A stretch of 64,000 nt of DNA, taken from sequence record PP274704.1; one strand, 5' to 3'. Numbering within the stretch: the stretch's first letter is position 1; each line of letters begins with the position of its first letter. The translations under genes were made by a program, and so were the position numbers. The notes under the pieces were generated by a model that was not told where the DNA came from, ran no database searches, and saw only the letters and a program-made list of their open reading frames with translations. Source of the DNA: Escherichia phage ECp13. Shown piece after piece: positions 5,405-41,063 of the stretch.

Positions 5405-5722
5405 ATGACTGATAAACCCGAAATTAATGATGAAGTGGAAAAGCTTATTTCTTCTATTGAAGAAAAGAACCGTCTTGAAGCAGAAAGAAAAGCAAATAAG
5501 TTATTGTCTAAAAACAAACGCGAACTGAACCGTCTTTATAAGCACGCTCAGATTGCAGCTGAAAACAATAATTTTGCTCAATACGAATATGCTATCAAGA
5601 AAAGTCGGGATATTCTAAAACAGCCATATAACGATGAACTCATTAGTATTCTTTGGAAGACTACTAGATCGCAGATTGAGGATATGATTGATGCTTACAC
5701 ACGTAAAATTCAAGCGTCTTAA
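5405..5722 (+). CDS. Hypothetical protein (105 aa), predicted coiled coil
   Basis: ORF track. Confidence 0.55.
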   Translation: MTDKPEINDEVEKLISSIEEKNRLEAERKANKLLSKNKRELNRLYKHAQIAAENNNFAQYEYAIKKSRDILKQPYNDELISILWKTTRSQIEDMIDAYTRKIQAS

Positions 5723-5894
5723 AATTAATGCAGGATTTACTGAATCTTTGAATGGTCATCTTTGCGTGAAAATTTCTGAAAAAGAATACCATGATAGTTC
5801 AATTAAAGAAGTTAATCCTCCTATTGTAAGAGCAGACCCTAATATGAAAGTGTGGGTTGATTCCTATCAAGTCAAAAAATGGTGGCAACTGTGA
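5691..5894 (+). CDS. Hypothetical protein (67 aa from ATG)
   Basis: ORF track 5688 start is TTG; ATG at 5691. Confidence 0.4.
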   Translation: MLTHVKFKRLKINAGFTESLNGHLCVKISEKEYHDSSIKEVNPPIVRADPNMKVWVDSYQVKKWWQL

Positions 5895-31801: not shown

Positions 31802-32062
31802 ATGATTAACATCAATTCAAAATATTTAAATCGTCTAATAGATGGTATAAAGAAGCACACTGATAAGCAAGATAACCTCAGTGTTATGGTAACAGGAGCT
31901 GAGCTCCTTTATAAGCTTAATCTTATAAGTGATACTATACTAGCAATTAAACGAATTGAAAAACAATCATATCACAGTAATACAGACACGGTAATTACGC
32001 TAGATGAAAGTGTCTGTAAGCTGTTGATTAAATTTGAGGAAGCTATTCGTGGAAATAACTAA
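31802..32062 (+). CDS. Hypothetical protein (86 aa), member 1 of a tandem paralog trio
   Basis: ORF track; C-terminal region resembles the next two ORFs. Confidence 0.5.
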   Translation: MININSKYLNRLIDGIKKHTDKQDNLSVMVTGAELLYKLNLISDTILAIKRIEKQSYHSNTDTVITLDESVCKLLIKFEEAIRGNN

Positions 32063-32294
32063 AGACCAGTTTTATCTGCTTCAAGATAAAGTGAGCGAAA
32101 TTTATGAAATAGCTTATAGTAAAAATCGTACAAATGTAAAAATTGAATCAGGCAAGTTAATGCTTCAATTGGAAGAAATTGAACGAGATTTGATTGCGTT
32201 AGAATTCTTTTGCGGTGAAGTGAAAACTGTTACAATCAGTGATTATGTTTTAGGTGAAATTAGCCATCTTTATAAGGCGGTTATTAATGATTGA
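32034..32294 (+). CDS. Hypothetical protein, paralog 2 (start uncertain: TTG 32034 or GTG 32049)
   Basis: ORF track; ...LQLEEIERDLIALEFF...VTISDYVLGEISHLYKAV. Confidence 0.4.
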   Translation: MRKLFVEITKDQFYLLQDKVSEIYEIAYSKNRTNVKIESGKLMLQLEEIERDLIALEFFCGEVKTVTISDYVLGEISHLYKAVIND

Positions 32295-32529
32295 ATTAAG
32301 TTTGCATCAGTTTAAGTCTCTTATGGCAAATGTTAAAGCTGTCATTCAAGAAAATTCAGGACCTGATAATGTTACTATTCGCGAAAAAGCTTTAAAGATA
32401 GTATACAGTCTTGAAGAGATACAAAAAGATATTGAATCTATGGCAAAATTTATTGATGAGCCCATTAATAAAGTTTATATCCAAGATTATACTGTAGGTC
32501 AAATTCGCGATTTAGCGAGGAAAATTTAA
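32287..32529 (+). CDS. Hypothetical protein, paralog 3 (80 aa from ATG 32287; ORF track starts 32254)
   Basis: ...SLEEIQKDIESMAKF...VYIQDYTVGQIRDLARKI. Confidence 0.4.
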   Translation: MIELSLHQFKSLMANVKAVIQENSGPDNVTIREKALKIVYSLEEIQKDIESMAKFIDEPINKVYIQDYTVGQIRDLARKI

Positions 32530-33212
32530 TGTTTGATTTTATTATAGATTTTGAAACAATGGGAAGCGGTGAAAAGGCAGCTGTTATTGATTTGGCTGTT
32601 ATTGCCTTTGACCCTAATCCAGAAGTAGTTGAAACATTTGATGAATTAGTTTCACGCGGCATTAAAATCAAGTTTGATTTAAAAAGCCAAAAAGGACATC
32701 GTCTTTTTACTAAAAGCACTATCGAATGGTGGAAAAATCAATCTCCTGAAGCTCGAAAAAATATTGCACCATCAGATGAAGATGTAAGCACTATCGATGG
32801 TATTGCAAAATTTAATGATTACATCAATGCGCATAATATCGATCCTTGGAAATCTCAAGGCTGGTGCCGTGGAATGTCGTTTGATTTTCCAATTTTAGTT
32901 GATCTCATTCGTGATATTCAGCGTCTTAACGGCGTTTCCGAGAATGAGCTTGATACGTTTAAGTTAGAACCTTGTAAATTCTGGAATCAACGCGATATTC
33001 GCACCAGAATTGAAGCACTTCTGCTTGTTCGTGATATGACCACATGTCCTCTTCCAAAGGGAACTTTAGACGGGTTCGTTGCGCATGATTCTATTCATGA
33101 CTGTGCGAAAGACATCCTGATGATGAAGTATGCTTTGCGATATGCTATGGGTCTTGAAGATGCTCCGTCAGAGGAAGAGTGCGATCCTCTATCTCTTCCA
33201 ACAAAACGATAA
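32529..33212 (+). CDS. dexA: Exonuclease A DexA (DEDD family)
   Basis: 227 aa; N-terminal DFETMG motif. Confidence 0.85.
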   Translation: MFDFIIDFETMGSGEKAAVIDLAVIAFDPNPEVVETFDELVSRGIKIKFDLKSQKGHRLFTKSTIEWWKNQSPEARKNIAPSDEDVSTIDGIAKFNDYINAHNIDPWKSQGWCRGMSFDFPILVDLIRDIQRLNGVSENELDTFKLEPCKFWNQRDIRTRIEALLLVRDMTTCPLPKGTLDGFVAHDSIHDCAKDILMMKYALRYAMGLEDAPSEEECDPLSLPTKR

Positions 33213-33252
33213 AAAGTTGTTTACTTCCTCGGTTAGTTGTGGTATTATAACA
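33210..33252 (+). promoter_or_regulatory. Early promoter (GTTTAC plus TATTAT)
   Basis: aaaagttGTTTACttcctcggttagttgtggTATTATaac. Confidence 0.5.
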
Positions 33253-33275
33253 CCATAGCTACTGAGGATAATAAA

Positions 33276-33785
33276 ATGAAAATTTATCGTGTTGAATCAT
33301 CGTTTAGTATTCTTGATTATGAAGATGCTATAACAATACGTCGAAATCTTTGTGTTCAAATAACGCCGTACAGGAGTATAATAGATTCATGGAGCGAAGA
33401 GTGGCTATTACGTGTAGGTTATAGTAGACCTAATTTTATGCATCATAGCGATAATAATAAAAGAATTCCTCTTCCGCGCGAAGACAAATTATTAGTTAAA
33501 AATGCTAATATAGCAATTAATACTAAATTTGAGAAAGAGGAATATGTAGGCGTAGATCACTATATTCCAGGATGGTTTATAGCTCTTTATCATTTTGCTT
33601 TCGCTAGTGAATATGATATGATGAGATGGTTCACACGAGAAGAGCGTGAAGAATTATCTTCTAAAGGATTTTATCTCGCTGTATACGAAGTTCCTGAAGA
33701 TGAAGTTATCATTGGCGGACACCAAGTAATGTTCCGTAAATCCCATGCTGAACTTGTAGATTTTATTGAAATGAGACAATTATGA
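33276..33785 (+). CDS. Hypothetical protein (169 aa)
   Basis: ATG 33276 with GAGGATAA SD; track start 33237 is TTG inside the promoter -10. Confidence 0.55.
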   Translation: MKIYRVESSFSILDYEDAITIRRNLCVQITPYRSIIDSWSEEWLLRVGYSRPNFMHHSDNNKRIPLPREDKLLVKNANIAINTKFEKEEYVGVDHYIPGWFIALYHFAFASEYDMMRWFTREEREELSSKGFYLAVYEVPEDEVIIGGHQVMFRKSHAELVDFIEMRQL

Positions 33786-34324
33786 AATTTAATTATAATC
33801 CTGAATACACCCCAAATCCTATAGATAAAATATTTGATATGGATACAGCAAGCATGTACGGCACTCTTGTTAAACCATTAGAAATTAAGGAAACCTTTAT
33901 GACTGCTCGGATCATCGAAATTGGCAAAACCTACAAACTGGTTGAAACTGAAATTAAAACTACTGAACTAAGTTTGGGTTATAAAGCATTGACCAGTGTT
34001 TTGGGTGAAGGCGAGTTTGTGGTTAAAAGTTTTTCAAAAAGTAATTGGCATGATAAGAATAAAGCTTACGTGATTCGAGCACAACGCTTAGATAATGATG
34101 AAGTAATTAAAACTATAGTCTTTGAAGTAGAGCTTATCCTCTTCCAAGAATGCGATCCTACTGACCTTCTAACTCGTGCTGTAGCTATCAAGACTCCATT
34201 TGTTTCGGTCTATGGTTGGGTAACAGACCAGTGGATTGAAGATGGTGTTGAACTTCTGAACGTGGTTCATGCAGGCGATTTTAGCGTAGTACCTCGTAGT
34301 GCAGTGGTAGCTATTTTGAATTAA
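33782..34324 (+). CDS. Hypothetical protein (180 aa), paralog of 34401..34898
   Basis: C-termini align: VTDQWIEDGVELLNVVHAGDFSVVP vs ITDQWVEDGVKLYNAVFLGTYKVIP. Confidence 0.55.
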   Translation: MKFNYNPEYTPNPIDKIFDMDTASMYGTLVKPLEIKETFMTARIIEIGKTYKLVETEIKTTELSLGYKALTSVLGEGEFVVKSFSKSNWHDKNKAYVIRAQRLDNDEVIKTIVFEVELILFQECDPTDLLTRAVAIKTPFVSVYGWVTDQWIEDGVELLNVVHAGDFSVVPRSAVVAILN

Positions 34325-34358
34325 TAGTTTACAAACTCTTGGGACCAGAGTATAATGG
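34320..34358 (+). promoter_or_regulatory. Early promoter (GTTTAC, 18 nt, TATAAT)
   Basis: tagtttacaaactcttgggaccagagtataat. Confidence 0.55.
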
Positions 34359-34400
34359 TCCCGTGGAGTATAAAATCTTTTTAACAAGTGAGAGATAACT

Positions 34401-34898
34401 ATGATTATTAATATTGGTGAAATTGCTCGTGTATCTGATAAATCCCGTTCTAAAGCAGCAGGAAAATTGGTTGAAATTGTAAGCATTCAGCTTAAACACG
34501 GTGTTAAAGATGAAGATTCTGAAGTAAAAGTGCGTATCATTCCTAAAGATGGAAAATCTAAACCTCAGTTTGGCTATGTTCGTGCGAAATTTATTGAGTC
34601 TGCGTTTTTGAAAGCTGTTCCTGCTAAAGGAATTGAAACGATTGATACTTCGCATGTAGGCGTAGACTTTAAGTGGAAACTCGGTCAAGCTATTAAGTTC
34701 GTTGCTCCTTATGAATTCGAATTTACTGAAGATGAGGAAGGGGTTGTTCAAAAACACCGTACTCGCGCTATGTGTGCATACATTACCGATCAGTGGGTAG
34801 AAGATGGCGTTAAGTTGTACAACGCGGTATTTTTAGGAACATACAAAGTCATTCCAGAAAGTTGGATTAAACACTATAGCAAAGCCCGCTGTGCATAA
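34401..34898 (+). CDS. Hypothetical protein (165 aa), paralog of 33782..34324
   Basis: ORF with GAGAGATAA SD. Confidence 0.55.
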   Translation: MIINIGEIARVSDKSRSKAAGKLVEIVSIQLKHGVKDEDSEVKVRIIPKDGKSKPQFGYVRAKFIESAFLKAVPAKGIETIDTSHVGVDFKWKLGQAIKFVAPYEFEFTEDEEGVVQKHRTRAMCAYITDQWVEDGVKLYNAVFLGTYKVIPESWIKHYSKARCA

Positions 34899-34927
34899 AG
34901 TTTAAAATTTTTTCATAAAACTATATA

Positions 34928-34972
34928 CATCAGTAGTTGATTATGGTACTATATCAATATCAACTACTGATA
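34928..34972 (+). promoter_or_regulatory. Promoter-embedded stem-loop: 11-bp inverted repeat flanking a -10-like TATGGTACTATAT
   Basis: tcagtagttga (34930-40) pairs with tcaactactga (34960-70). Confidence 0.4.
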
Positions 34973-34995
34973 CAGAAAACAACTTGGAGAATAAA

Positions 34996-35265
34996 ATGGA
35001 AAACTTAATTATCATCGAACAATCTTTCAACGATTATGGTATGGCTTACGGTTATCGTGCGATAATGGAAGATTCTCGTGGATGTGTTATCGATATTGCT
35101 GAATGTAAAGATTTACTGCAGCTTTTGAAGATTGTTCGTAAAAATTGGGATTGTGAAAACATTAAAGTTCGTGTTGTAACGGAAGAAGAAACTGTTTTTC
35201 ATGATGTAAAATTCGCCAAAGGTGCTGCCACTCTTCTGAAACGCATCGCTCCAATGTTCAATTAA
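34996..35265 (+). CDS. Hypothetical protein (89 aa)
   Basis: ATG with GGAGAATAAA SD; track start 34984 is TTG. Confidence 0.5.
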   Translation: MENLIIIEQSFNDYGMAYGYRAIMEDSRGCVIDIAECKDLLQLLKIVRKNWDCENIKVRVVTEEETVFHDVKFAKGAATLLKRIAPMFN

Positions 35266-35278
35266 TGAGGAAATTGTA

Positions 35279-35494
35279 ATGAAACGTAAAAATGTTCAGA
35301 ATTGCACTAATGACGAATTTGAAGATGTATTATTCGATCCAGATTTGGTAGTAGTTCAAAAGGAACACACCGTTAAGTTTACTCACTTGACTTCGGTTTA
35401 TGTGTATGAAAAGGTTGGTGATAAACAACCCATTTACGGTGTATTCCGTGAAATTACTGAAAATGGCACAACTTACTGGAAGGAAATTTATTAA
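35279..35494 (+). CDS. Hypothetical protein (71 aa)
   Basis: ORF track; GAGGAAA SD. Confidence 0.5.
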
Positions 35495-35913
35495 TGGCTA
35501 TTAGATTTGAAGTTAATAAATGGTATCAATTTAAAAATAAACAAGCTCAAGAAAATTTTATTAAAGACCATACTGATAACGGAATCTATGCACGCCGTTT
35601 AGGTATGCATCCTTTTAAAATTTTAGATGTTGACCATCTTGGTCGTCCTACTAAAATTGTGACATCTACTGGCACAGTTGGATATGCAAAACATGGTGAT
35701 ATCCTTGATGAAAACTTTATCTGGCTCTCTACCAACGAAGCTGGGTTCTTTGATGAAGTGGAAAATCCATATCAGGCAGCTGAAGAGCAAGAGCAGGAAG
35801 AGCAAGAACAAATAGAAGATTTCACAGAATTTCCTATCATGAAAGTTACTATTGAAAATAATGAACAGGCATGGTCCTTGTATCAGATGTTGAAAGCACA
35901 CTTTAAGGAATAA
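35494..35913 (+). CDS. Hypothetical protein (139 aa) with acidic EQ-repeat
   Basis: ORF track; internal [15 protein letters not shown]. Confidence 0.55.
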
Positions 35914-35915
35914 TT

Positions 35916-36092
35916 ATGCCAATGTATGATTATAAATGCCAATCCGAAGATTGCGGGCATGAATATGAAAAAATTAAAAAGATTTCTGAACGAGAAAATG
36001 ATGTTTGTCCTAAATGTCATCGTCTGTCTACTCGTCGGCCTTCTGCTCCTAAGCATGTGAATGGTGGATTTTACGACTTACTTAAAGGGTGA
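35916..36092 (+). CDS. Small zinc-ribbon protein (58 aa), FmdB-like CxxC...CxxC
   Basis: MPMYDYKCQSEDCGHEYE...DVCPKCH; ATG follows previous stop. Confidence 0.45.
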   Translation: MPMYDYKCQSEDCGHEYEKIKKISERENDVCPKCHRLSTRRPSAPKHVNGGFYDLLKG

Positions 36093-36094
36093 TT

Positions 36095-36466
36095 ATGTTT
36101 AAAATCGGTAAGAAATATCGTGTTCGTGAAGGTGAAGAAAAGAAATATCTGCTTTCTTCTATTTATAGGAATGGTTCTATTAATGCCGTAATATCTACAA
36201 GCGAATTTATCGTTGAAGATATGAAAGGTAATAATGTTACAATGATTAGTACAGCATCTGGAAATGACGGAAAAATTCTTCACAGTTTTCAGAGTAATGT
36301 TCTAATATATGATGAAGAATTTGACTTCTTCGAAGAAGTTCCTGAAGATTTTAGTTTTGAATGCACTATCACTATGAAATCTGGCGACCCTCTTTCTTTT
36401 ACGGTTAAAGATGAAAGAAGCCGCTTGAGAATTATTAGTCTCCTTCAAGCCATTAAATTTGAGTGA
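36095..36466 (+). CDS. Hypothetical protein (123 aa)
   Basis: ORF track (GTG 36089 / ATG 36095). Confidence 0.5.
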   Translation: MFKIGKKYRVREGEEKKYLLSSIYRNGSINAVISTSEFIVEDMKGNNVTMISTASGNDGKILHSFQSNVLIYDEEFDFFEEVPEDFSFECTITMKSGDPLSFTVKDERSRLRIISLLQAIKFE

Positions 36467-36470
36467 AATT

Positions 36471-36731
36471 ATGAAATATGTTAATCGTTCTATCGCGGCA
36501 TTAGTATTAGCAGTGTCTTTAGCAGGATGTACTGATGCTGATAATGCAACCAAAGTTTTGTCTTCAAGTGGGTTTACTAATATTGAAATCACTGGATACA
36601 ATTGGTTCGGTTGCTCTGAAAATGATTTCCAACATACTGGATTTCGTGCTATTGGACCTACCGGGCAGAAAGTAGAAGGAACCGTATGTTCTGGTCTATT
36701 CTTCAAGGATTCGACTATCCGTTTTAAATAA
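36471..36731 (+). CDS. Putative lipoprotein (86 aa)
   Basis: Signal peptide with lipobox LAGC; ATG 36471. Confidence 0.5.
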   Translation: MKYVNRSIAALVLAVSLAGCTDADNATKVLSSSGFTNIEITGYNWFGCSENDFQHTGFRAIGPTGQKVEGTVCSGLFFKDSTIRFK

Positions 36732-36750
36732 AAGGCCTTCGGGCCTTTAG
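36731..36750 (+). terminator. Hairpin AGGCC-UUCG-GGCCU plus U-rich tail
   Basis: aaaggccttcgggccttt. Confidence 0.55.
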
Positions 36751-36800
36751 CTTTATGATTACCGGAGTATAATATTCCCGAAACCAAACGAGGATAAGTG

Positions 36801-38618
36801 ATGATTAAGAATGAAATTAAAATTCTGAGCGATATTGAACATATCAAAAAGCGTAGCGGCATGTACATTGGCTCTTCCGCTAATGAAATGCATGAGCGCT
36901 TTCTGTTTGGTAAATGGGAAAGTGTTCAGTATGTACCTGGTCTTGTTAAGCTTATTGATGAAATTATCGATAACTCAGTAGATGAAGGTATTCGTACTAA
37001 GTTTAAATTCGCGAATAAAATTAATGTTACTATCAAAAACAATCAAGTAACAGTTGAAGATAACGGTCGTGGTATTCCACAAGCGATGGTTAAAACACCT
37101 ACTGGTGAAGAAATTCCCGGTCCTGTTGCCGCCTGGACTATTCCAAAAGCAGGTGGTAACTTCGGTGATGATAAAGAACGTGTCACTGGCGGTATGAACG
37201 GTGTTGGTTCTAGTTTAACTAACATTTTTTCTGTGATGTTTGTCGGTGAAACTGGCGACGGTCAAAATAATATTGTAGTTCGTTGTTCAAATGGCATGGA
37301 AAATAAATCATGGGAAGATATTCCCGGAAAATGGAAAGGAACTCGTGTTACTTTCATTCCTGATTTTATGTCATTTGAAACTAATGAGCTGTCTCAAGTT
37401 TATCTTGACATTACACTGGATCGTCTCCAGACACTTGCAGTAGTTTATCCTGATATTCAATTTACCTTTAATGGTAAAAAGGTTCAGGGTAATTTTAAGA
37501 AATATGCACGCCAATATGATGAGCATGCTATTGTTCAAGAACAAGAAAATTGTTCTATTGCGGTTGGTCGTTCACCAGATGGTTTTCGTCAATTAACATA
37601 CGTCAATAACATTCATACTAAGAATGGTGGCCATCACATTGACTGCGTTATGGATGATATTTGTGAAGACCTTATTCCACAAATCAAACGTAAGTTCAAA
37701 ATTGATGTAACTAAAGCACGTGTTAAAGAATGTTTGACTATCGTTATGTTTGTTCGTGATATGAAAAACATGCGATTTGATTCTCAGACTAAAGAGCGTT
37801 TGACTTCTCCATTTGGTGAAATTCGTAGTCATATTCAGCTTGATGCTAAAAAGATTTCACGTGCTATTTTAAATAATGAAGCAATTTTAATGCCAATTAT
37901 TGAAGCTGCCTTGGCTCGTAAATTGGCAGCAGAAAAAGCAGCAGAAACTAAAGCAGCTAAAAAGGCTTCTAAAGCTAAGGTTCATAAACATATTAAAGCG
38001 AATCTTTGTGGTAAAGACGCTGACACTACTCTTTTCTTGACTGAGGGTGATTCTGCTATCGGATATCTTATTGATGTTCGTGATAAAGAACTTCATGGTG
38101 GTTATCCATTGCGTGGTAAAGTTCTCAACAGTTGGGGTATGTCATATGCTGATATGCTTAAAAACAAAGAACTGTTTGATATTTGTGCAATTACTGGATT
38201 AGTTCTTGGTGAAAAAGCTGAAAACTTGAATTATCATAATATTGCTATTATGACCGATGCTGACCATGATGGTCTAGGAAGCATTTATCCTTCTCTGCTC
38301 GGATTTTTTAGTAATTGGCCAGAACTGTTTGAACAAGGAAGAATTCGCTTCGTCAAAACTCCTGTAATCATCGCTCAGGTCGGTAAAAAACAAGAATGGT
38401 TTTATACAGTCGCTGAATATGAGAGTGCCAAAGATGCTCTACCTAAACATAGCATCCGTTATATTAAGGGACTTGGCTCTTTGGAAAAATCTGAATATCG
38501 TGAGATGATTCAAAACCCAGTATATGATGTTGTTAAACTTCCTGAGAACTGGAAAGAGCTTTTTGAAATGCTCATGGGAGATAATGCTGACCTTCGTAAA
38601 GAATGGATGAGCCAATAG
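36801..38618 (+). CDS. 39: Topoisomerase II large subunit gp39, uninterrupted full-length form (includes the part T4 encodes as gene 60)
   Basis: 605 aa; GHKL ATPase N-domain; TOPRIM LTEGDSAIGY; PLRGK. Confidence 0.9.
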   Translation: MIKNEIKILSDIEHIKKRSGMYIGSSANEMHERFLFGKWESVQYVPGLVKLIDEIIDNSVDEGIRTKFKFANKINVTIKNNQVTVEDNGRGIPQAMVKTPTGEEIPGPVAAWTIPKAGGNFGDDKERVTGGMNGVGSSLTNIFSVMFVGETGDGQNNIVVRCSNGMENKSWEDIPGKWKGTRVTFIPDFMSFETNELSQVYLDITLDRLQTLAVVYPDIQFTFNGKKVQGNFKKYARQYDEHAIVQEQENCSIAVGRSPDGFRQLTYVNNIHTKNGGHHIDCVMDDICEDLIPQIKRKFKIDVTKARVKECLTIVMFVRDMKNMRFDSQTKERLTSPFGEIRSHIQLDAKKISRAILNNEAILMPIIEAALARKLAAEKAAETKAAKKASKAKVHKHIKANLCGKDADTTLFLTEGDSAIGYLIDVRDKELHGGYPLRGKVLNSWGMSYADMLKNKELFDICAITGLVLGEKAENLNYHNIAIMTDADHDGLGSIYPSLLGFFSNWPELFEQGRIRFVKTPVIIAQVGKKQEWFYTVAEYESAKDALPKHSIRYIKGLGSLEKSEYREMIQNPVYDVVKLPENWKELFEMLMGDNADLRKEWMSQ

Positions 38619-38650
38619 TTTACTTTACCACAAGGATGTGGTATAATTAA
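38610..38650 (+). promoter_or_regulatory. Early promoter (GTTTAC, 18 nt, TATAAT)
   Basis: tagtttactttaccacaaggatgtggtataat. Confidence 0.55.
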
Positions 38651-38672
38651 TTGGGCAAATGAGGATATTGAA

Positions 38673-38876
38673 ATGAAATCATATAGAGTAAATTTAGAAC
38701 TTTTTGATAAAGCAGTTCATCGAGAATATAGAATCATTCAACGCTTTTTCGATATGGGAGAAGCTGAAGAGTTTAAAAACCGCTTTAAGGATATTAGAGA
38801 TAAAATTCAATCCGACACCGCAACTAAAGATGAACTACTAGAAGTTGCTGAAGTTATTAAACGCAATATGAATTAA
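38673..38876 (+). CDS. Hypothetical protein (67 aa), rIIA.1 position
   Basis: ORF track; GAGGATATTG SD. Confidence 0.5.
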
Positions 38877-38886
38877 TGAGGAAATT

Positions 38887-41063
38887 ATGATTATCACCAC
38901 TGAAAAAGAAACAATTCTTGGTAATGGTTCTAAATCAAAAGCATTTAGCATCACAGCATCTCCTAAAGTATTCAAAATTCTGTCATCTGATTTGTATACA
39001 AACAAGATTCGCGCAGTAGTCCGTGAATTGATTACCAACATGATTGATGCCCATGCTCTCAATGGAAATCCTGAAAAATTTATCATTCAAGTTCCAGGAC
39101 GATTAGATCCGCGATTTGTTTGTCGAGATTTTGGTCCAGGTATGAGCGATTTTGATATTCAAGGTGATGATAATTCTCCTGGGTTGTATAATTCATACTT
39201 TAGTTCATCTAAGGCTGAATCTAACGATTTCATTGGTGGATTTGGTTTAGGTTCTAAATCTCCGTTTAGTTATACTGATACATTTAGTATTACTTCATAT
39301 CATAAAGGCGAAATTCGTGGTTATGTAGCTTACATGGATGGCGATGGTCCACAAATTAAACCTACATTTGTAAAAGAAATGGGTCCAGATGATAAAACTG
39401 GTATTGAAATCGTAGTTCCAGTTGAAGAAAAAGACTTTAGAAACTTTGCTTATGAAGTTTCTTATATCATGCGACCATTCAAAGATTTAGCTATCATTAA
39501 TGGTCTTGACCGCGAAATTGATTATTTTCCGGATTTTGATGACTATTACGGCGTAAATCCAGAAAGATACTGGCCAGATCGTGGTGGATTGTATGCTATC
39601 TATGGCGGTATTGTTTATCCTATCGATGGTGTTATTAGAGACCGTAACTGGTTAAGCATCCGTAATGAAGTGAATTACATTAAGTTTCCAATGGGTTCAC
39701 TTGATATTGCTCCATCACGCGAAGCTCTTTCACTAGATGATCGTACTCGTAAAAATATTATTGAGCGTGTTAAAGAGCTTAGTGAGAAGGCATTCAATGA
39801 AGATGTAAAACGATTTAAAGAATCTACATCTCCTCGTCATACATACCGTGAATTGATGAAGATGGGATATTCTGCTCGAGATTATATGATTAGTAATTCA
39901 GTCAAATTTACGACTAAAAATCTGTCATATAAGAAGATGCAAAGCATGTTTGAACCAGATAGTAAGCTATGCAATGCAGGAGTTGTGTATGAAGTAAATC
40001 TTGACCCTCGACTGAAACGCATTAAGCAAAGTCATGAAACTTCAGCCGTTGCATCAAGTTATCGTCTGTTCGGTATTAATACAACAAAAATTAATATCGT
40101 TATTGATAATATTAAAAATCGCGTTAATATTGTCCGTGGATTAGCGCATGCGTTAGATGATAAAGAATTTAATAACACTTTAAATATTCATCACAACGAG
40201 CGTCTTCTGTTTATTAATCCGGAAGTAGAATCGCAGATTGATTTACTCCCTGATATTATGGCAATGTTTGAAAGTGATGAAGTTAACTTCATCACTTGTC
40301 AGAAATTGAAGCTTTAGTTAAAAGTTATATTCCGAAGGCAGTTAAAAGTAAAGCTCCTCGTCCTAAAGCTGCTACTGCGTTTAAGTTTGAAATTAAAGAC
40401 GGGCGCTGGGAAAAAGAGGAACTGTTTACACTTACGTCAGAAGCAGATGAAATTACTGGTTATGTAGCATACATGCATCGTTCTGATATTTTCTCTATGG
40501 ATGGTACTACATCGCTCTGTAATCCGTCTACGAGTATTTTGACTCGTATGGCTAATCTTATTGGCATTAATGAATTTTATGTTATTCGTCCACTTTTGCA
40601 GAAAAAGGTAAAAGAACTTGGTCAGTGCCAATGTATTTTTGAAACTCTACGTGATTTATATGTAGATGCTTTTGATGATGTAGATTATGATAAGTATGTA
40701 GGTTATTCAAGTTCAGCTAAACGATATATTGATAAAATTATCAAGTATCCTGAGTTAGATTTTATGATGAAGTACTTCAGTGTAGATGAAGTTTCCGAAG
40801 AATATACACGACTCGCTAATATGGTTAGTTCATTACAGGGTGTATATTTCAACTGTGGAAAAGATACCATCGGTCATGACATCTGGACAGTAACTAATCT
40901 TTTTGATGTATTATCAAACAATGCTTCAAAAAACAGTGATAAAATGGTTACTGAGTTTACTAAGAAATTCCGTATTGTTTCCGACTTCATCGGTTATCGC
41001 AACTCTTTAAGTGATGATGAAGTTTCCCAAATCGCTAAAACTATGAAGGCCCTTGCGGCCTAA
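38887..41063 (+). pseudogene. rIIA: rIIA, split by apparent 1-nt deletion between 40284 and 40296
   Basis: ORF 38887..40317 (476 aa) plus ORF 40296..41063 (255 aa) together match remembered 725 aa rIIA; frame changes at ...FESDEV / [10 protein letters not shown]. Confidence 0.7.

Follow-up and report, generated by a model that had tools for sequence, protein, structure and literature searches.

Genes of fewer than 60 codons are easily lost from automated lists of open reading frames (ORFs), and the plus-strand ORF at positions 35916 to 36092 of a 64,000-nucleotide stretch of the Escherichia phage ECp13 genome (PP274704.1; hereafter the window, from whose first letter all positions are counted) is such a case. 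With 58 codons it fell just below the cut-off of the first-stage ORF track, and the initial annotation described it as an unannotated zinc-ribbon ORF resembling FmdB-type regulators. The locus raises two questions: whether so short a frame is a gene at all and, if it is, what its product does. Here, we report that it is an already known and named gene with a published function in phages T4 and RB69. Taken as a whole, the reading that we favor, and consider very probable, is that T4 early gene 39.2 (Gp39.2, or NwgI) has its orthologue in this ORF, whose product, a zinc ribbon with a C-terminal tail, is expressed early from a polycistronic unit and modulates GroEL.

The ORF and its coding status

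The 58-codon frame on the plus strand was confirmed as first described, and the peptides quoted from it then were exact; its translation is MPMYDYKCQSEDCGHEYEKIKKISERENDVCPKCHRLSTRRPSAPKHVNGGFYDLLKG. The features needed to place it are as follows.

35916 to 36092, plus strand: gene 39.2 (NwgI) orthologue, 58 codons, ATG at 35916, TGA at 36090 to 36092
35905 to 35909, plus strand: Shine-Dalgarno sequence AAGGA, 6 nt before the 39.2 ATG, within the last codons of goF

The start had been placed 3 nt after the upstream stop, and the A of the ATG at 35916 is indeed the third base after the goF stop codon (TAA, 35911 to 35913), with 2 bases (TT) between them. This goF/39.2 junction, TTTAAGGAATAATTATG, is identical in phages PP01 and T4.

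The frame is under purifying selection. Nei-Gojobori estimates of dN/dS for 39.2 were 0.076 against RB69 and 0.16 against T4, and the 39.2 gene of the window differs from that of PP01 by synonymous changes only, in four codons. The same region lists many spurious ORFs of 30 to 60 codons, as would fit a frame that arose by chance in AT-rich intergenic DNA and is not a gene. Against this stand the low dN/dS values (0.08 to 0.16), the Shine-Dalgarno sequence, scores above curated family cut-offs (see below), and the phenotype of a T4 39.2 deletion, as published in the account of PMC5153855. In addition, the 39.2 frame is intact in all orthologues examined, which span several genera, whereas the alternative frames do not stay open in relatives: the overlapping plus-strand ORF in the +1 frame (35926 to 36060) is interrupted by stops in T4, and the overlapping antisense ORF at 35883 to 36056 (minus strand) is interrupted in both T4 and RB69. 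These stops ruled out an overlapping gene in another frame as well as a chance ORF, and we give the latter practically no credence.

Orthology and gene neighborhood

The window is part of a Tequatrovirus (T4-like) genome. Its 39.2 region was 96 to 97.6% identical to many Tequatrovirus genomes (best match, Shigella phage ESh26), and 693 phage records matched a query of 1.4 kb from the region. Searched with tblastn, the 39.2 protein matched 885 phage records (E, 3e-33); in 851 of these the match covered 80% or more of the protein, and in 215 the identity was 99% or higher. Protein identity was 100% to gp39.2 of PP01, about 93% to ORF006c of RB69, and 79% to the 58-amino-acid (aa) Gp39.2 of resequenced T4 (MT984581). 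Many of these homologues are annotated in phage records as gp39.2, "FmdB-like transcriptional regulator," or "zinc ribbon domain protein"; "unannotated" therefore holds only for the first-stage ORF track, since public T4-like genomes annotate gene 39.2.

The window protein has the same length as T4 Gp39.2 (58 aa; the RB69 orthologue has 59 aa) and has in common with both a Cx4C-x17-CxxC ribbon, the C-terminal tail SAPKHVNGGFYDLLKG, and a location between goF and gene 39. Residues that differ from T4 Gp39.2 number 12 of 58 and lie mostly in the loop between the zinc knuckles and at residues 37 to 42, and the window differs from T4 in an extra goF-like ORF between 39.2 and 39.1. The neighboring genes, all on the same strand, are listed here.

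35494 to 35913, plus strand: goF (comC-alpha) homologue, 139 aa, annotated goF at the same position in PP01, T4, and RB69; PHROG 622
36095 to 36466, plus strand: distant goF-family paralogue, 123 aa, with a PP01 annotation that maps to 36095; PHROG 622 (E, 5e-29)
36471 to 36731, plus strand: gp39.1 homologue, 86 aa, from the PP01 annotation; PHROG 902
36801 to 38618, plus strand: gene 39, DNA topoisomerase II large subunit, fused 39+60 type

The collinear genes of PP01 are motB, cef, goF, 39.2, a hypothetical gene, 39.1, 39 (topoisomerase II large subunit), rIIA.1, and rIIA, and PHROG scans of the neighbors in the window confirmed MotB, Cef, and GoF. The genes around the ORF had been taken for an operon of unknown genes, but most of them are T4 early genes that already have names (motB, cef, goF, 39.1, and topoisomerase gene 39). 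The order goF-39.2-(39.1)-39 is the same in PP01, T4, and RB69, and in T4-like phages 39.2 is anchored on its downstream side by the conserved gene 39: in Tegunavirus TG1, Krischvirus RB49/Makalu_003, and Pseudotevenvirus RB43, too, 39.2 lies just upstream of the gene for the topoisomerase large subunit. In the window, as expected of a 39.2 gene, the ORF follows goF (dexA/motB.2 in more distant phages) and precedes gene 39 on the same strand. The ORF, its orthology, its synteny, and its purifying selection, together with the family membership described below, are results of the present analysis.

The downstream junction had been read as a stop overlapping the next start. This is correct for a GTG at 36089 (GTGA), which the mechanical ORF list takes as the downstream start, but the conserved and annotated start is the ATG at 36095, which begins 2 nt after the 39.2 stop. 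The GTG is absent from PP01 and T4 because the 39.2 stop is TAA there, and it was rejected in favor of the ATG. The conserved form of the junction is GGGT(A/G)ATTATG. What stood of the earlier suggestion of translational coupling is the tight packing itself: both sides of 39.2 have the arrangement stop-NN-ATG, with Shine-Dalgarno sequences inside the preceding genes, which would be compatible with coupling or with re-initiation.

Near-identical strings recur at successive junctions, namely, TAATTATG (35909 to 35918), TGATTATG (36088 to 36097), and TGAAATTATG (36462 to 36473). Because the junction downstream of 39.2 is kept although the gene that follows it differs between T4 and this phage, the arrangement suggests that gene cassettes may be exchanged at such boundaries. 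The ORF at 36095 to 36466 and goF both match PHROG 622 (E, 5e-29 and 4e-41, respectively) with a pairwise identity of only 22%; by this shared family, 39.2 is flanked in this phage by two distant goF-family paralogues. T4 is without the second goF-like gene, and its 39.1 lies directly after 39.2.

Two further observations concern the downstream genes. The start of the gp39.1 homologue (36471 to 36731), MKYVNRSIAALVLAVSLAGC, resembles a lipoprotein signal peptide with an LAGC lipobox, and the product may therefore be a small phage lipoprotein. Gene 39 (36801 to 38618) encodes an uninterrupted topoisomerase large subunit of 605/606 aa, as in RB69 and PP01, and has none of the T4-specific 39/60 split, mobA/60.1 insertion, or translational bypass.

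Zinc ribbon, predicted structure, and tail

That the ORF codes for a small zinc ribbon of the FmdB/Zn_ribbon_8 family was borne out by searches with hidden Markov models, which passed curated cut-offs for Pfam PF09723 (Zn_ribbon_8; E, 6.7e-12; 45.7 bits versus a cut-off of 34.4) and for NCBIfam TIGR02605 (FmdB family zinc ribbon protein, CxxC_CxxC_SSSS; 44.9 bits versus 31.3). The protein also matched PHROG 1076 (7e-12). The cysteine pattern, first given as CxxC-x~25-CxxC, had to be corrected to C8-x4-C13-x17-C31-x2-C34. Four Cys/His ligands are thus present in two knuckles, of which the first is Cx4C and not the nominal CxxC; both were read from the sequence.

35937 to 35954, plus strand: first zinc knuckle, Cys8-x4-Cys13 (KCQSEDCG)
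36006 to 36017, plus strand: second zinc knuckle, Cys31-Pro-Lys-Cys34 (CPKC)

In an alignment of 74 sequences, C8, C13, C31, and P32 were each at least 90% conserved and C34 was invariant. Conservation of the four cysteines in related phages had been put forward as the deciding check, and what is kept is four metal ligands, not four identical Cys positions. Among eight aligned phage sequences, C8 and C34 were invariant, with the pattern C-x2-H...CxxC in RB49/Makalu (the second ligand being His) and CxxC...CxC in RB43 and Pectobacterium phage CB7 (the third ligand being shifted by one residue). Zinc binding by the 39.2 protein is our inference, and so are the promoter and, for this phage in particular, the shared activity, both discussed below.

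An exhaustive phmmer search of 1.84 billion representatives returned 155 matches at an E value of 1e-3 or less, 146 of them short. An N-terminal P-x-Y-x-[YFL]-x-C motif, ending in the first cysteine, was found in 130 of the 146 short representatives, CxxC-x17-CxxC in 58, and Cx4C-x17-CxxC, as in the window, in 32. The window protein thus has in common with the FmdB family the MPxYxYxC start, knuckles about 17 residues apart, a second knuckle of the form CPxC, and a glycine/aromatic motif that follows the ribbon. It differs from the family in its first knuckle (Cx4C, whereas CxxC is the commonest), in a tail of the phage type xGG(F/Y)YD where bacterial members have KGxG(F/W)Y...TDY, and in the absence of the serine-rich C terminus of many bacterial members. 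Gp39.2-like zinc ribbons also occur outside Straboviridae, in the Certrevirus Pectobacterium phage CB7 (locus 1501 to 1677, beside a pyrophosphatase gene) and in 350-kb jumbo phages.

An AlphaFold2 model, built from the 74-sequence alignment, had a mean pLDDT of 79 (about 87 over residues 1 to 40, which contain four short strands). As modeled, residues 1 to 40 would form a four-stranded FmdB/Zn_ribbon_8 zinc ribbon with Cys8, Cys13, Cys31, and Cys34 as its ligands, and residues 41 to 58 would form a flexible, conserved tail.

36042 to 36089, plus strand: C-terminal tail SAPKHVNGGFYDLLKG, predicted flexible (pLDDT, about 60 over residues 41 to 58)

The tail carries the motif (S/T)AP-x3-xGG(F/Y)YD, present in the window protein as SAPKHVNGGFYD, shared with T4, RB69, TG1, and RB49, and found in a diverged form in RB43. 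The subfamily with this motif comprises about 19 representative clusters, among them all the T-even-type sequences; bacterial members have a related motif, KGxG(F/W)Y, after the ribbon. Foldseek found no significant match for the model in the PDB (best E, 0.3), and its top entries, all nonsignificant (E, at least 0.3), were zinc-ribbon modules (MCM N-terminal domain, RbpA, Rpo12, and aRF1). A profile search of PDB sequences returned generic zinc fingers and ribbons only (Aart, Rpo12/RpoP, L32, L31, and eL43), with neither a true 39.2 homologue nor a GroEL complex among them.

Function

The gene was reportedly first selected from RB69 by Ang and Georgopoulos, and its T4, RB43, and RB49 homologues are said to act alike; overproduction is said to be lethal to the host, and suppression of groEL and groES mutants is said to be allele specific. 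In the account by Georgopoulos, the product of T4 39.2 is a 58-aa peptide with a subtle modulating effect on GroES/GroEL (PMC5153855, citing Ang and Georgopoulos 2012, Genetics 190:989). Genetics and biochemistry, according to that account, suggest that Gp39.2 moves GroEL toward an open conformation that binds host and phage co-chaperonins, and a T4 39.2 deletion is described there as completely blocked on specific groEL mutant hosts (PMC5153855). The role of Gp39.2 with GroEL/GroES is summarized alike in PMC4396842.

The GroEL effect, like early transcription, comes from this literature on the orthologues. With an identity of about 93% to the RB69 protein, the same activity is the most likely function of the window protein, which by orthology with T4 and RB69 most likely binds, or otherwise acts on, the GroEL of its host. 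It would shift GroEL to the open conformation that accepts a co-chaperonin (host GroES or phage Gp31), and, on hosts with a suboptimal GroEL, this shift would aid folding of the major capsid protein. Members of the same fold family are common in bacteria, where none is known to have a chaperonin role, and the GroEL activity may therefore be specific to the phage subfamily. The co-chaperonins T4 Gp31 and RB49 CocO have the same host target and the same purpose, the folding of phage capsid protein. They are GroES-like heptameric lids of about 110 aa without a zinc ribbon, whereas Gp39.2 is a 58-aa accessory protein, nonessential on wild-type hosts, with no relation in sequence or fold to either of them.

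A different function is implied by the name that many records carry. FmdB itself was described as a "putative regulatory protein" beside a formamidase gene and is not known to have been shown to regulate anything; the "regulator" of the initial annotation was a name inherited from FmdB by homology. A role as an FmdB-like transcriptional regulator, acting on the transcription of the phage or its host through binding to DNA or RNA polymerase, would agree with the "FmdB-like transcriptional regulator" records, with the filing of PHROG 1076 under "transcription regulation," and with the place of 39.2 among early genes that modify transcription (motB). A likeness to the zinc ribbons of RbpA and the RNA-polymerase subunit Rpo12 in Foldseek points the same way, though it is weak and not significant (E, 0.9 to 1.4). 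However, the label is a transitive annotation, no DNA-binding motif was found beyond the ribbon, and the sole experimental data on the orthologous group, as given in PMC5153855 and PMC4396842, point to GroEL. A full-text literature search for FmdB with "zinc ribbon" returned a single, unrelated paper and no experimental support for the regulator label, and we regard this function as improbable. The product name is widespread although unsupported, while the experiment-based name, NwgI/GroEL modulator, is almost never propagated.

A related alternative keeps the small zinc-ribbon host-takeover protein and gives it a main target other than GroEL, such as another chaperone, a protease, or a defense protein, so that the GroEL phenotypes would be indirect. 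The reported lethality of overproduction suggests broad effects of this sort, and the homologues outside Straboviridae (Certrevirus CB7 and the jumbo phages) would be in keeping with it; the reported allele specificity of groEL and groES mutant suppression argues against it. Further against it, genetics and biochemistry both support the shift in GroEL conformation, and the block to the T4 deletion is confined to specific groEL mutant hosts, both according to PMC5153855. We allow this alternative a slim chance and retain GroEL modulation as the function of the protein.

How the protein might reach GroEL is a more speculative matter. The tail sequence NGGFYDLL could conceivably dock in the apical groove of GroEL, with the ribbon as a mere handle, an idea drawn from a motif resemblance, from the low pLDDT of the tail, and from its conservation. 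The comparison is with the GroEL-binding mobile loop of GroES (GGIVL) and with the loop of Gp31. Because bacterial FmdB proteins have a KGxGFY/GWY motif after the ribbon, the whole FmdB family might, on the same idea, consist of chaperonin modulators and not of regulators. We consider this combined proposal a long shot.

Expression

Gene 39.2 of T4 is classed as early by its transcript in Table S2 of PMC9697503; the same table lists the T4 39.2 protein as undetected, in a study that used the truncated 45-aa reference annotation. The best plus-strand promoter candidate upstream of 39.2 in the window also lies upstream of goF.

34328 to 34356, plus strand: best sigma-70-like promoter match upstream, TTTACA-17-TATAAT (11/12)

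A scan of the plus strand from 32000 to 39000 found no terminator. As no plus-strand terminator-like site lies between this match and 39.2, the match is a candidate early promoter for the polycistronic unit. The pattern of the MotA-box middle promoter occurs at 13 sites in the window, none of them on the plus strand between 25005 and 40922; the site nearest 39.2 is a minus-strand match at 38691 to 38714. Gene 39.2 would thus most likely be transcribed early, within a polycistronic motB-cef-goF-39.2-...-39 unit, and would be translated from its own Shine-Dalgarno sequence in close coupling to goF.

The T4 reference sequence and other public records

The RefSeq genome of T4 (NC_000866.4) annotates 39.2 as a protein of 45 aa (5702 to 5839). 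Compared with the MT984581 locus at 401 to 577, positions 5650 to 5840 of the reference have one T too many (GCT[T]CCTAAG) as well as several substitutions, and these differences, with an apparent frameshift at the extra T, account for the 45-aa product. MT984581 annotates an intact 58-codon 39.2, and all the other T4 records listed (T4T HM137666, KJ477684-6, OL964735, OZ209023, and others) gave a full-length tblastn match of 58 residues in a single piece. Further on, the reference retains ...PKH.N.GFYDLLKG in its downstream frame. The truncation in NC_000866.4 is almost certainly a sequencing error, and it continues to spread, for instance into omics studies based on the reference annotation.

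The value of the ORF at 35916 to 36092 for discovery is small; its practical value lies in curation. A 60-codon cut-off in the ORF track misses a functional, conserved host-takeover gene. A few public records hold a frameshifted 39.2, whose gene calls switch between its own frame and the +1 frame and give either a product ending in ...VCPNVIVCLLVGLLLLSM or one in which MIINVNQK... is joined onto the C terminus of 39.2. These calls are probably assembly or sequencing errors and not a second product.
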